Assembly: GCF_003018255.1 (NCBI RefSeq)
Contig: NZ_CP027440.1
DNA from: Escherichia coli
GTDB lineage: Bacteria; Pseudomonadota; Gammaproteobacteria; Enterobacterales; Enterobacteriaceae
Strand: one strand, 5' to 3'
DNA: 64,000 nt
Of this stretch, positions 39,528 to 51,931 are shown piece after piece. Position numbers and translations under genes: made by a program. The notes beneath the pieces are model-generated. The model ran no database searches. It was not told the origin of the DNA and saw only the letters and a list, made by a program, of their open reading frames with translations. Numbering within the stretch: position 1 is the first letter of the stretch; each line of letters begins with the position of its first letter.

Positions 39528-39568
39528 GATGTCATCGACACTAGTGACGATGACATGTGATGACAATG
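39528..39568. promoter_or_regulatory. candidate FhlA-type enhancer motifs upstream of hydN-hypF
   Basis: ATGTCATCGACA ... TGACATGTGATGACA repeats resembling the TGTCA-N-TCGACA motifs near hyc/hyp promoters; overlaps ascG 3' end. Confidence 0.45.
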
Positions 39569-39569
39569 T

Positions 39570-40580
39570 TTATCGCGAAAGAGCAATGAGGGAGTCGCGG
39601 CGGATCAGTTTTCCGCTGAAGGTTTTCGGCGGTGTGTAAGCACCACCATCGAGCATAAATATCAGCCGCCCAATTATTTCCTGAATCATCTCAGTCACCG
39701 GAATTTTTACGCTGGAGAGCGCCGGAACGGTGTAGGGGGCAATAGCGATATCATCGAATCCGATAACTGACACCTGCTCTGGCACCGCTACGCCGCGCTC
39801 GTGTAACGCTTTCATCGCACCTATCGCCATATCGTCGTTACTGGCAACTAACGCGCTAAATTTAGCCCCACGTTCGAGCAACATTTCTACCCCTTCGGCC
39901 CCGCTGGCAGGCGTCCATTTACCGTTAGCGATAAGTTTTTCATTGAGCGCAATACCATGCTGCGCCAGCGCGTCTTTATACCCGGCAAGACGTTCAACGC
40001 TGGTGGGGGAATCCATCGAACCGGTAAGGAAAGCAATCTCCTGATGTCCGGCGTTTATCAACTCTGCCACGGCGTTAAAGCTGGTCTGTTTATGATCGCA
40101 CCAGACGCTATGGCTGCTGTTTTTGCGCAGGCGGCGATTAAGCACCATTATCGGCTGACTGTGTGCGTCAATGATGTCATCAATCTCATCCACGCTTAAA
40201 AAACGCGGGTAAATCATAATGGCGTCGCAGCGCAAATCCAGCAGATACTGAATCGCCTGGCGCTCTTCTTCGGCGCTGTGTTTACCATCTGCCAATAGCA
40301 ACTGTCGCCCTTTCTCTTCCGCCATTCGCGCGGCATGAAAGAGTAATTCACTAAAATAAATGCCGTGGTAAAGCGTGTTGGTCACGACCAGCCCCAGCGT
40401 CTGAGTACTCTTCGCCGACAGATTGCGCGCCAGCAAGTTTGGACGGTAACCGCTCTCTTCTACCGCCTGAAACACGCGATCTTTAGTCTCCTGGCTGACG
40501 TAGCCATTACCTGAAAGCACGCGGGAAACGGTCGCTTTTGAAACCCCGGCGCGCTTCGCCACTTCCAGCATCGTCGTCAT
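39570..40580 (-). CDS. ascG: LacI/GalR-family repressor of ascFB
   Basis: ORF 39570-40646; start placed at MTTMLEVAKRAGVSKATVSRV (336 aa). Confidence 0.88.
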   Translation of the reverse strand: MTTMLEVAKRAGVSKATVSRVLSGNGYVSQETKDRVFQAVEESGYRPNLLARNLSAKSTQTLGLVVTNTLYHGIYFSELLFHAARMAEEKGRQLLLADGKHSAEEERQAIQYLLDLRCDAIMIYPRFLSVDEIDDIIDAHSQPIMVLNRRLRKNSSHSVWCDHKQTSFNAVAELINAGHQEIAFLTGSMDSPTSVERLAGYKDALAQHGIALNEKLIANGKWTPASGAEGVEMLLERGAKFSALVASNDDMAIGAMKALHERGVAVPEQVSVIGFDDIAIAPYTVPALSSVKIPVTEMIQEIIGRLIFMLDGGAYTPPKTFSGKLIRRDSLIALSR

Positions 40581-40839
40581 CATTTTCATCCCTTTACACG
40601 CAATCAACGCAGTGTACTGCACCGTTTGCCGATTGTCCTTGCGCAATCGGCGGGAAAAATATTCAGGTGACCGGTTTCACAAATATAAAAAATGAACAAT
40701 TAACTCTCTTGCTTATTCAGTGACAACTATTCATGATTTTGTGAAACCGGTTTCCTAATTCCGTTTCAGCATCGGCATTTTTCCGTCACGTCGACTGATA
40801 ACAACTACATCTACCCTACTGATAACAGGATAAAATCCG

Positions 40840-42297
40840 ATGGCCAAAAATTATGCGGCGCTGGCACGCTCGGTGATAGCGGCACTGGGCGGCGTTGATA
40901 ACATCTCGGCAGTCACGCACTGTATGACGCGTTTGCGCTTTGTTATCAAAGATGACCAGCTTATCGACAGTCCGACGTTGAAAACCATCTCCGGCGTGCT
41001 CGGCGTGGTACGTAGTGACAACCAGTGTCAGGTGATTATCGGCAATACCGTTTCACAAGCCTTTCAGGAAGTCGTCAGCCTGCTGCCGGGAGATATGCAG
41101 CCCGCACAGCCCGTGGGTAAACCCAAACTTACGCTACGTCGCATAGGTGCGGGGATCCTCGATGCGCTGATCGGCACCATGTCACCGCTGATCCCGGCGA
41201 TTATCGGCGGATCGATGGTCAAACTGCTGGCGATGATCCTCGAGATGAGCGGCGTGCTGACAAAAGGATCGCCGACCTTAACCATTCTGAATGTGATTGG
41301 TGACGGTGCTTTCTTCTTCCTGCCGCTGATGGTCGCGGCTTCGGCCGCCATCAAATTTAAAACCAATATGTCGCTGGCGATTGCCATCGCGGGTGTTCTG
41401 GTACATCCGAGTTTTATTGAACTGATGGCGAAAGCGGCCCAGGGTGAACATGTCGAATTTGCCCTGATCCCGGTCACCGCGGTGAAATACACCTACACGG
41501 TGATCCCGGCGCTGGTGATGACCTGGTGCCTGTCATATATCGAACGCTGGGTGGATCGCATTACACCGGCGGTGACTAAAAACTTCCTCAAGCCAATGCT
41601 GATTGTGTTGATTGCCGCACCGCTGGCAATCCTGCTGATTGGCCCGATTGGTATCTGGATCGGTAGCGCCATTTCGGCGCTGGTTTACACCATTCATGGT
41701 TATCTGGGCTGGCTTTCAGTCGCCATTATGGGCGCGCTGTGGCCTCTGCTGGTAATGACCGGGATGCACCGCGTCTTTACGCCAACCATCATTCAGACCA
41801 TTGCCGAAACCGGCAAAGAAGGGATGGTCATGCCGTCAGAGATCGGCGCTAACCTGTCGCTGGGCGGTTCATCACTGGCAGTGGCGTGGAAAACGAAAAA
41901 CCCGGAACTGCGTCAGACGGCGCTGGCTGCGGCGGCATCAGCCATTATGGCGGGGATTTCCGAACCGGCGTTATATGGCGTGGCGATCCGCCTGAAACGT
42001 CCGCTTATCGCCAGTCTTATCAGCGGTTTTATTTGCGGCGCGGTTGCCGGTATGGCGGGGCTTGCCAGCCACTCAATGGCAGCGCCGGGGCTATTTACCA
42101 GCGTGCAGTTCTTCGATCCGGCGAATCCAATGAGCATCGTCTGGGTGTTCGCCGTCATGGCGCTGGCGGTCGTGCTGTCGTTCATCCTCACACTGTTGCT
42201 CGGCTTTGAGGATATTCCTGTTGAGGAAGCGACTGCCGAGGCGCGAAAGCATCAGAGCGCACAACCGACCGTCGCCAAAGAAGTAAGTCTTAATTGA
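40840..42297 (+). CDS. ascF: PTS beta-glucoside (arbutin/salicin/cellobiose) EIIBC
   Basis: 485-aa ORF; N-terminal EIIB fold then membrane EIIC; recognised as AscF. Confidence 0.92.
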
Positions 42298-42305
42298 GGA
42301 TGAAA

Positions 42306-43730
42306 ATGTCAGTATTTCCAGAAGGTTTTTTATGGGGCGGCGCGCTTGCCGCCAACCAGTCTGAAGGTGCGTACCGGGAAGGTGGCAAAGGGCTGACCAC
42401 CGTCGATATGATCCCACACGGCGAGCATCGAATGGCGGTGAAACTGGGGCTGGAAAAACGTTTTCAGTTGCGCGATGACGAGTTTTATCCCAGCCATGAG
42501 GCGACGGATTTTTATCATCGTTATAAAGAAGATATCGCCCTGATGGCAGAGATGGGATTCAAAGTGTTCCGTACCTCAATTGCCTGGAGCCGCCTCTTCC
42601 CGCAGGGCGATGAACTGACGCCCAACCAGCAGGGCATTGCTTTTTACCGTTCTGTCTTTGAAGAGTGTAAAAAGTACGGTATCGAACCGCTGGTCACGTT
42701 GTGCCACTTCGATGTGCCGATGCATCTGGTCACCGAATATGGCTCCTGGCGTAACCGCAAGCTGGTGGAGTTTTTCAGCCGCTACGCCCGGACCTGCTTT
42801 GAAGCATTTGATGGTCTGGTGAAATACTGGCTCACCTTCAATGAAATCAACATTATGTTGCATAGCCCGTTCTCCGGCGCGGGTCTGGTGTTTGAAGAAG
42901 GCGAAAATCAGGATCAGGTGAAATATCAGGCTGCGCATCACCAACTGATTGCCAGTGCATTAGCCACCAAAATCGCCCATGAGGTTAACCCGCAAAATCA
43001 GGTGGGCTGTATGCTGGCGGGCGGTAACTTCTACCCTTACAGTTGCAAGCCGGAAGATGTCTGGGCGGCGCTGGAGAAAGATCGGGAAAACCTGTTTTTT
43101 ATCGATGTGCAGGCGCGGGGCGCGTATCCGGCTTACTCTGCCCGCGTATTCCGCGAAAAAGGGGTAACCATCGACAAAGCACCGGGCGATGATGAGATCC
43201 TGAAAAACACCGTCGATTTTGTCTCTTTCAGCTATTACGCCTCACGCTGCGCCTCGGCGGAGATGAACGCCAACAACAGCAGTGCGGCGAACGTGGTGAA
43301 ATCGCTGCGTAACCCATATCTACAGGTAAGCGACTGGGGCTGGGGGATTGATCCACTCGGTCTGCGTATCACCATGAACATGATGTATGACCGCTATCAG
43401 AAGCCGCTGTTTCTGGTGGAAAACGGCCTCGGCGCAAAAGATGAACTTGCTGCCAATGGCGAGATTAACGATGACTATCGCATCAGCTATTTACGCGAAC
43501 ATATCCGCGCAATGGGCGAAGCGATTGCAGATGGCATTCCGCTGATGGGCTACACCACTTGGGGCTGTATTGATTTGGTTTCCGCCTCAACGGGTGAAAT
43601 GAGCAAACGCTACGGTTTTGTCTACGTAGACCGTGACGACGCAGGCAACGGTACGCTGGCGCGCACGCGTAAGAAATCGTTCTGGTGGTATAAAAAAGTG
43701 ATTGCCAGTAATGGTGAGGATTTAGAGTAA
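42306..43730 (+). CDS. ascB: 6-phospho-beta-glucosidase (GH1)
   Basis: ORF 42294-43730; start at [13 protein letters not shown] (474 aa); GH1 motifs LTFNEIN and VENG. Confidence 0.92.
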
Positions 43731-43736
43731 GTAACA

Positions 43737-51288: not shown

Positions 51289-51750
51289 TCATGCTGCCGG
51301 GCTTTGTCCCTTTACCAGTTGGCTTAAATTCACCGGCACATTGTTTTCAATGGCGGTGTATAAGCTGTCGTAAACGCCAGCGATTTTTTCGAGATAGTGT
51401 TCCAGAACCTGTTCGCGATCGCGGATGTTGACCTTGCCATCAATCATGCCGTCAATGCTCAGTTGCGCCTGCGCAATCCGCTGTTTGTCTTCACCATCTT
51501 TTGTTTCGACGTAATACTCGATGGTGTGGCTGTTAAAGCCATCCGCCAGGGTGACGTAAATACGAAAATGTTCAAAAAGGACGAAACAGAGTTCTTTGTC
51601 CGGCGCGCAGCTCATGGCGTGATGCAGGCGCGCTTTCGATAACGTGATTCCCTGAACCAGCGAATTGCAGTAGATGTGCCACTGGTCCTGTAGGCGACGA
51701 TGCCGCTGTGCGATGTAATCGGCTTTCTCGCTTATTTCCCAAATAGTCAT
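51289..51750 (-). CDS. hycA: formate hydrogenlyase regulatory protein
   Basis: 153-aa ORF; recognised as HycA. Confidence 0.92.
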   Translation of the reverse strand: MTIWEISEKADYIAQRHRRLQDQWHIYCNSLVQGITLSKARLHHAMSCAPDKELCFVLFEHFRIYVTLADGFNSHTIEYYVETKDGEDKQRIAQAQLSIDGMIDGKVNIRDREQVLEHYLEKIAGVYDSLYTAIENNVPVNLSQLVKGQSPAA

Positions 51751-51786
51751 TGTCAGGTTACCCGTTTAACAGAGATGCCAGCTTTA

Positions 51787-51802
51787 AGCATTTTTTGTGC
51801 CA
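51787..51802 (-). promoter_or_regulatory. sigma-54 promoter of hyc operon
   Basis: Minus-strand TGGCAC-aaaaa-ATGC (GG/GC at canonical -24/-12 spacing) upstream of hycA. Confidence 0.65.
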
Positions 51803-51860
51803 ACTTTTAATTTATTGTTATTAAAGCGATTTTTAAGCTAAAGATGAATTTCGTCGCCGT

Positions 51861-51889
51861 GTCGACGTGTCATTTCGACATCATCGACA
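51861..51889. promoter_or_regulatory. candidate FhlA enhancer motifs in hycA-hypA spacer
   Basis: GTCGACGTGTCATTTCGACATCATCGACA between the divergent sigma-54 promoters. Confidence 0.55.
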
Positions 51890-51915
51890 TTATTCACCGC
51901 AGGGATAATCAACAC

Positions 51916-51931
51916 TGGCACAATTATTGCT
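51916..51931 (+). promoter_or_regulatory. sigma-54 promoter of hyp operon
   Basis: TGGCAC-aatta-TTGCT about 30 nt upstream of hypA ATG. Confidence 0.7.

Follow-up and report, generated by a model that had tools for sequence, protein, structure and literature searches.

The 64-kb stretch of Escherichia coli DNA analysed here (contig NZ_CP027440.1 of assembly GCF_003018255.1; the whole stretch is called the window) covers the norRVW–hypF–hydN–asc–hyc–hyp–fhlA region, which is found in ~4,700 E. coli genomes and is 100% identical across bases 39000-52000 in E. coli JNE23-011. Three operons related to formate hydrogenlyase lie in it: hydN-hypF and hycABCDEFGHI on the minus strand, and hypABCDE-fhlA, which runs divergently from hyc on the plus strand (Table 1). 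The subject of this study is a set of short sequence motifs in the control regions of these operons, which a first-pass annotation made from the letters of the DNA had described as recurring TGTCA-N-TCGACA elements and had judged consistent with enhancer sites of the formate-responsive activator FhlA. The upstream activating sequences of FhlA are known from the work of the Böck laboratory between 1989 and 2000, and were mapped in the 1990s.

The cognate activator is itself encoded in the window, and has the sensory, AAA+ sigma-54-interaction and helix-turn-helix domains expected of such a protein: Pfam matches are to GAF (3.5e-18), to Sigma54_activat (1.2e-72) and to the Fis-type HTH_8, the last at 21.0 bits, slightly below the 22-bit cutoff. 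The hyp transcription unit ends with fhlA, from which positive autoregulation would follow. In the RefSeq/PGAP annotation this gene (55653-57731, plus strand) is named 'flhA', with the product 'formate hydrogenlyase transcriptional activator FlhA'; the label is a slip for fhlA/FhlA, and is open to confusion with the flagellar export gene flhA.

Recurrence of a short motif in three regulatory regions

The composite motif TGTCA-N0-6-TCGACA has exactly three matches on the two strands of the window, starting at 39530, 51215 and 51868, where the corresponding elements are TGTCATCGACA (39530-39540), TGTCATTTTCGACA (51215-51228) and TGTCATTTCGACATCATCGACA (51868-51889). The expected number is 0.22, and none of 100 dinucleotide shuffles gave three or more matches, which bears out the recurrence that had been noticed at these three places. 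When 5-mers were counted without bias over the three regions, the most frequent were TCGAC, TGTCA, GTGTC, GTCAT and CGACA, each of them present in all three; the unit that the clusters share is a pentamer complementary to itself, YGWCR, with TGTCA, CGACA and TGACG among its forms. Each enhancer is a phased cluster of such pentamers, which are often paired 9 bp apart. Groups of at least five YGWCR per 40 bp occur in the window only at 39530-39565 (five pentamers) and 51852-51889 (six), against an expectation of 0.115; the hycA-hycB spacer holds five pentamers in 55 bp.

The comparison was extended by a HycE-seeded scan, which gave 80 loci from different Enterobacteriaceae species (1.55 Mb), including Escherichia, Salmonella, Citrobacter, Klebsiella, Enterobacter, Kosakonia, Atlantibacter and Mangrovibacter; in each locus hycA, hycB, hypA, hydN, hycI and ascG were located and the three regulatory regions were aligned to the window. 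As many as 131 of the 140 pentamer clusters in these loci fall inside the three regions, and one of the nine outlying clusters is the hyc enhancer of a truncated locus. This disposes of the objection, raised in the first-pass annotation itself, that the motif might be as frequent in random intergenic DNA. Conservation in the aligned regions is block-wise, in the manner of phylogenetic footprints, the blocks being the pentamers, sites resembling those of integration host factor (IHF) and the -24/-12 promoter elements. The pentamers stand at -130 to -75 of the inferred hyc and hydN starts (46-75 species), which is looping distance.

It might be argued that the recurrence is a product of chance or of the composition of AT-rich intergenic DNA, as TCGACA by itself occurs 59 times in the window and CATCGACA ~15 times, and matches to the sigma-54 consensus with at most one mismatch are at chance level (5 against 3.7 expected in the window, not significant). 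We give this explanation next to no probability: it is refuted by the excess of composite motifs, by the excess of pentamer clusters and by the confinement of 94% of the clusters in 1.55 Mb to three regions, and the block-wise conservation across genera also speaks against it.

Two regions outside the window are also of note. Upstream of fdhF in strain K-12, six pentamers and the palindrome CGTCAAAACTGACG lie 55-110 nt upstream of the promoter TGGCATAAAAGATGCA, and the region upstream of hyfA contains CGACACGGGTGTCG.

Sigma-54 promoters

The first-pass annotation had placed divergent sigma-54 promoters between hyc and hyp, and had suggested that one be sought upstream of hydN. The hyc and hyp promoters are both found where it had put them, coincide with sites identified by chromatin immunoprecipitation sequencing (ChIP-seq; PMC4591121) and are kept in all 75 orthologous spacers, and the hydN promoter is likewise identical to a ChIP-seq site. 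The hydN promoter has a weak -12 element, with GA for GC, and is conserved in at least 46 of 57 orthologous sequences. Sigma-54 ChIP-seq sites are given for hydN, hycA and hypA in PMC4591121, and the Salmonella orthologues are bound by sigma-54 and assigned to FhlA (PMC3844500, PMC4987338). Since the consensus is at chance level in the window, also when two mismatches are allowed, the promoter calls rest on position, ChIP-seq identity and conservation.

Two further sigma-54-like sequences were seen. Within hycA, TGGCACATCTACTGCA (51666-51681, minus strand) keeps its GG-N10-GC in 58 of 75 orthologues. We rejected it as an internal promoter, because it reads in frame as Trp-His-Ile-Tyr-Cys, so that constraint on the Trp and Cys codons suffices to account for its conservation, and because consensus matches are at chance level; the main text of PMC4591121 does not list it as a site within hycA. 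The other, TGGCACGCAATCTGCA at 33633-33648 (plus strand), is the norVW promoter and is identical to a published ChIP-seq site (PMC4591121); norR, whose product activates norVW, is divergent and upstream of it.

IHF-like sites

Upstream of the hyc and hydN promoters, and at a nearly fixed distance from their -24 elements, lie sequences resembling the IHF consensus, for which we used WATCAANNNNTTR. Among hyc promoters, a strict form of the pattern, WATCARNNNNTTR, stands at an offset of 5-6 nt in 32 of 75 and a relaxed form in 43 of 75; among hydN promoters the counts are 7 of 46 and 22 of 46. The background of WATCARNNNNTTR is 0.077 per kb per strand. In the 75 species compared, WATCARNNNNTTR never occurs upstream of the hyp promoter. 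Binding of IHF at hyc, and stimulation by it, were reportedly described by Hopper et al. 1994. We know of no report of IHF at hydN, where the site is a prediction from the sequence.

The hydN-hypF control region

The core of the hydN enhancer (39530-39555, minus strand) is a near-perfect palindrome of 26 bp, TGTCATCGTCA-CTAG-TGTCGATGACA, with two arms of 11 around a spacer of 4; it forms an inverted repeat of four pentamers at steps of 6, 9 and 6 bp, and is centred at about -95 from the inferred start. At least 10 of the 11 positions pair in 47 of 56 species, as against 0.8% of random 150-nt control pieces. The cluster was thought to overlap the 3' end of ascG. It abuts that gene instead: the pentamers end at 39565 (39568 in the first-pass annotation), and the ascG stop codon is at 39570-39572.

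Whichever gene stands upstream, ascG (40 species) or hycI (10 species), the hydN module is ~140-215 nt long. In E. albertii, E. whittamii and an Escherichia sp. (loci L007, L009 and L010) there is no ascG upstream of hydN, and a gap of 0.9-1.15 kb follows hycI before hydN; in Salmonella, Atlantibacter and Mangrovibacter the hycI-hydN gap is ~165-215 nt. Citrobacter sp. wls619 (L014) retains only a fragment of ascG, its last ~30 codons (62% identity, residues 303-331). To judge by these arrangements, the asc operon appears to have been gained or lost repeatedly at the hycI-hydN junction, with the hydN enhancer kept.

In E. coli the hyc and hydN control regions can be aligned with one another over ~150 nt, and they are nearly identical in a stretch TTTAA(A)TAACA(A/G)TAAATTAAAA leading into TGGCA, which contains the IHF-like core.

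The hyc enhancer and the probable hyp enhancer

Of 74 orthologous hycA-hypA spacers, 66 contain a pentamer cluster. The enhancer in this spacer occupies about -85 to -115 relative to the hyc start, and its distance from the hyp start is merely ~45-100 bp. The element in the hycA-hycB spacer has a different setting. All three motifs had been described as standing in front of operons, which is right for the hydN-hypF and hycA-hypA spacers; the one before hycB is internal to hycABCDEFGHI. Its coordinates put it 720-750 bp upstream of the hyp start. Schlensog et al. 1994 and Leonhartsberger et al. 2000 reportedly identified it as a distant hyp enhancer, and the cluster most likely serves the hyp promoter from ~720-750 bp away. 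The hyc enhancer is unusually close to the hyp start, so it is reasonable that hyp should have a distant enhancer of its own.

Upstream of hycB, the pattern GTGTCGA-N4-TGTCGAAA(A)TGACA is conserved. The sequence TTTCGTCAAAAATGAC (51185-51200, minus strand) is essentially invariant in ~75 Enterobacteriaceae species. Its end, 20 nt from the hycB start, adjoins the conserved GAGGA ribosome-binding site. This invariance is the one mildly unexplained feature of the element, and would fit a different role, either instead of that of a hyp enhancer or in addition to it: action on the hyc promoter from ~550-590 bp downstream, or an RNA-level signal for the translation or stability of hycB. A bioRxiv preprint, in which replacement of hycA by an fdhF-hycB fusion led to poor expression from the remaining hyc promoter region, is suggestive and no more than that. 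We consider such a role unlikely, given that the element is a palindromic GTCA-N4-TGAC pair whose pentamers are those found elsewhere in the three regions, that it is recognised by a matrix of published FhlA sites (see below), which has its best match in the window in the partner of the invariant element, B1, and that the invariant columns show no covariation pointing to an RNA structure; the closeness of the hyc enhancer to hyp counts in the same direction. Service to hyp remains the preferred assignment.

A hairpin, CAGGCG-TTA-CGCCTG followed by TTTGGGG, lies directly past the hycA stop codon (51253-51267, minus strand). It is found in Escherichia and is unconserved in other genera, and, being T-poor, it was missed by the terminator scan. 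Scans of the spacers for terminators and promoters added nothing, and an Rfam search gave no match to an RNA family in the regions of interest.

Correspondence to published FhlA sites

A position matrix derived from 13 characterised FhlA sites is available (PMC7658346, Table 2), and its consensus, TGTC(A/G)A(A/T)(A/G)ATGACA, is in effect two pentamers 9 bp apart. Scored over the ~128,000 positions of the window, the matrix ranks 51215-51228 (TGTCGAAAATGACA) first with 17.6 bits and 51876-51889 (TGTCGATGATGTCG) second with 16.2 bits, and places 51184-51197, with 12.3 bits, at about rank 7-10. The top ranks show that the motifs of the first-pass annotation are published FhlA sites. High-scoring matches of matrix or cluster at 28111 (srlE) and 18443 (yqaB) lie in coding DNA and were treated as due to chance.

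All three operons belong to the FhlA/formate regulon and have sigma-54 promoters (PMC4987338, PMC3844500, PMC4591121, PMC11841067), and hydN-hypF, hyc, hyp and fdhF are stated to be its members in PMC11841067. We conclude with high confidence that the three clusters are upstream activating sequences of FhlA, that is, enhancers of the formate regulon acting by the textbook mechanism; regulon membership and the site matrix come from the literature, and sequence, specificity, conservation, geometry, promoter identity and activator domains from the present analysis. The proposal of the first-pass annotation is thus upheld by the identity of the sites under the matrix, by a documented regulon, by conservation and specificity in the 80 loci and by the clusters at fdhF.

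Several points have to be set against this conclusion. The hydN cluster is weak under the fixed-spacing matrix (best score 7.1 bits, rank ~200), because its pentamers follow each other at 6-, 9- and 6-bp steps and not at one spacing, and it fits the characterised sites only through its pentamers and palindromic architecture. The sites were themselves probably among those used to make the matrix; the ranks therefore establish identity and are not independent support or prediction, and the test is partly circular. The 16-mer FhlA consensus quoted in a review, CATTTCGTACGAAATG (PMC4987338), fits none of the sites well, the best of them having 5 mismatches. The invariance of TTTCGTCAAAAATGAC goes beyond that of any other FhlA site, and an extra constraint on it is possible. 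Full-text searches of the literature gave neither footprint coordinates nor the promoter served by the hycA-hycB site, whose assignment to hyp is probable; FhlA binding, and transcription dependent on formate and FhlA, are taken from the literature.

As a scanning test we rejected CATTTCGTACGAAATG, which finds its best matches in unrelated coding DNA. These matches, with 3-4 mismatches, are at 5245-5260 (the proV/proW overlap), 10860-10875 (emrA) and 30697-30712 (srlR), and none of them is in an FhlA-regulated region.

A last alternative is that the main protein bound at the clusters is not FhlA but another regulator, for example its paralogue HyfR, or a factor not yet recognised. HyfR, which activates the hyf operon, is a related activator of sigma-54 promoters; the upstream region of hyf also has CGACA-CGGG-TGTCG, and the poor fit of the hydN cluster to the fixed-spacing matrix could be read in the same sense. 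This is highly improbable, as hydN, hyc, hyp and fdhF are all attributed to FhlA in the literature (PMC4987338, PMC3844500, PMC11841067), every locus with hyp has fhlA adjacent and conserved along with it, and it is a matrix of characterised FhlA sites that picks out these places.

Table 1. Genes and control elements of the formate hydrogenlyase region. Positions refer to the window; those of genes are from the RefSeq annotation, converted to window numbering.
Feature	Position	Strand	Remarks
norR, norVW			genes of the same window
hypF	36489-38741	-	RefSeq
hydN	38894-39421	-	RefSeq; Pfam: 4Fe-4S ferredoxin
hydN-hypF sigma-54 promoter, CTGGCATGATTTGTGAA	39459-39475	-	identical to hydN ChIP-seq site (PMC4591121)
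IHF-like site, TAACAGTAAATTA	39480-39492	-	predicted; 2 deviations from WATCAANNNNTTR; ends 5 nt before TGG of hydN -24
hydN-hypF upstream activating sequence	39530-39565	-	five YGWCR pentamers
ascG	39570-40580	-	RefSeq; stop codon 39570-39572
ascF, ascB		+	RefSeq
hycI to hycB	43888-51164	-	RefSeq
hycA-hycB spacer enhancer	51184-51238	-	B2, CGTCAAAAATGACA, 51184-51197; B1, TGTCGAAAATGACA, 51215-51228; extra TGTCG, 51234-51238
hycA	51289-51750	-	RefSeq; Pfam HycA_repressor (1.3e-90); FhlA antagonist, between the two hyc/hyp enhancers
hycABCDEFGHI sigma-54 promoter, TGGCACAAAAAATGCT	51787-51802	-	equals ChIP-seq site TTGGCACAAAAAATGCT (PMC4591121); 75/75 species
IHF-like site, TAACAATAAATTA	51808-51820	-	1 deviation from WATCAANNNNTTR; ends 5 nt before TGG of hyc -24
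hycA-hypA spacer enhancer	51852-51889	-	six YGWCR; TGTCGATGATGTCG at 51876-51889; conserved core TGWCGAAATGACAYGTC at 51862-51880
hypABCDE-fhlA sigma-54 promoter, TGGCACAATTATTGCT	51916-51931	+	equals ChIP-seq site CTGGCACAATTATTGCT (PMC4591121); 75/75 species
hypA, then hypB to hypE	from 51962	+	RefSeq
fhlA	55653-57731	+	RefSeq; last gene of hyp transcription unit; cognate enhancer-binding activator

Other features of the window

Between emrB and luxS lies a pair of genes (13704-15520, plus strand) that overlap by 4 nt; the first encodes a protein of the RNA_ligase family (PF09414, 3.5e-28), the second an AAA_33/KTI12-like kinase (PF13671, 3.5e-32). A search with PADLOC gave no defence-system match for this pair. 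K-12 presumably has no genes at that position, and the pair looks like a strain-variable insert of the RNA-repair type. Rfam identified the MicA small RNA at 16156-16227 (plus strand), a naRNA4 element, of the repetitive extragenic palindromic (REP) type, at 7419-7496 (plus strand) downstream of proX, and, clustered at 19141-19864 (minus strand), four tRNA-Arg and one tRNA-Ser.

Discussion

The proposed course of activation is as follows. Formate-bound FhlA would assemble on the pentamer clusters, and the DNA between enhancer and promoter would loop, probably with IHF at the A/T-rich site upstream of the -24 element at hyc and hydN; the AAA+ domain of FhlA, using ATP, would then open the closed complexes that sigma-54 RNA polymerase forms at the promoters of hyc, hyp and hydN-hypF. 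Of the clusters, that in the hycA-hypA spacer (51852-51889) would serve the hyc promoter and that at 39530-39565 hydN-hypF, and the one internal to the hyc operon (51184-51238) would most likely serve hyp.

The three enhancers and their promoters are already known, and are classical biology: the FhlA sites of the E. coli formate regulon (fdhF, hycABCDEFGHI, hypABCDE-fhlA and hydN-hypF) are those of the same organism, with the same genes, promoters and sites. No substantive difference from them was found; what is added here is the reading in terms of YGWCR, the 26-bp palindrome of hydN and conservation in 56-75 species. The general layout is that of modules of the NtrC/NifA type (glnAp2, nifH): the enhancer lies at about -80 to -130, a putative IHF-like bend site stands between it and a -24/-12 promoter, and the AAA+ activator has a C-terminal helix-turn-helix. 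Unlike the activators of those modules, FhlA is activated by formate acting on its N-terminal region and not by phosphorylation (PMC11841067); moreover, one FhlA enhancer is inside an operon, ~0.7 kb from its presumed target, and the IHF-like core at hyc and hydN abuts the -24 element at 5-6 nt. The enhancers of GlrR (TGTC-N10-GACA) and NorR (GT-N7-AC) are also similar, in having multiple copies of inverted GTC/GAC-type half-sites upstream of sigma-54 promoters (PMC4987338), but they differ in spacing and in activator, the FhlA sites being made up of 5-bp units at steps of 6, 9 and 10 bp.

A more far-reaching proposal can be put forward only tentatively, and we hold it to be doubtful: the hydN-hypF control region may be a full paralogous copy of the hyc module (enhancer, IHF-like site and promoter), the near-perfect four-pentamer palindrome of 26 bp may define the recognition unit of FhlA better than the published 16-mer does, and TTTCGTCAAAAATGAC may have a second function, for example in coupling FhlA occupancy to hycB expression. 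If true, the readings of a paralogous module and of a second function of TTTCGTCAAAAATGAC would refine a known system and reveal no new one, and parts of them may already have been described by Leonhartsberger et al. 2000.

The value of the analysis for discovery is small, and lies in calibration: reading the raw sequence recovered a real regulon signature together with its promoters. There are practical gains as well, namely the YGWCR descriptor, the demonstration that the 16-mer CATTTCGTACGAAATG is poor for scanning and the predicted IHF-like site at hydN. In 1.55 Mb of enterobacterial DNA, the descriptor of at least five YGWCR in 40 bp has a specificity of ~94% for the enhancers of the formate regulon. 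For the biology of E. coli, the place of fhlA at the end of the hyp transcript, together with the presence of hycA, the gene of an FhlA antagonist, would make of the locus a formate switch that is both self-amplifying and self-limiting.

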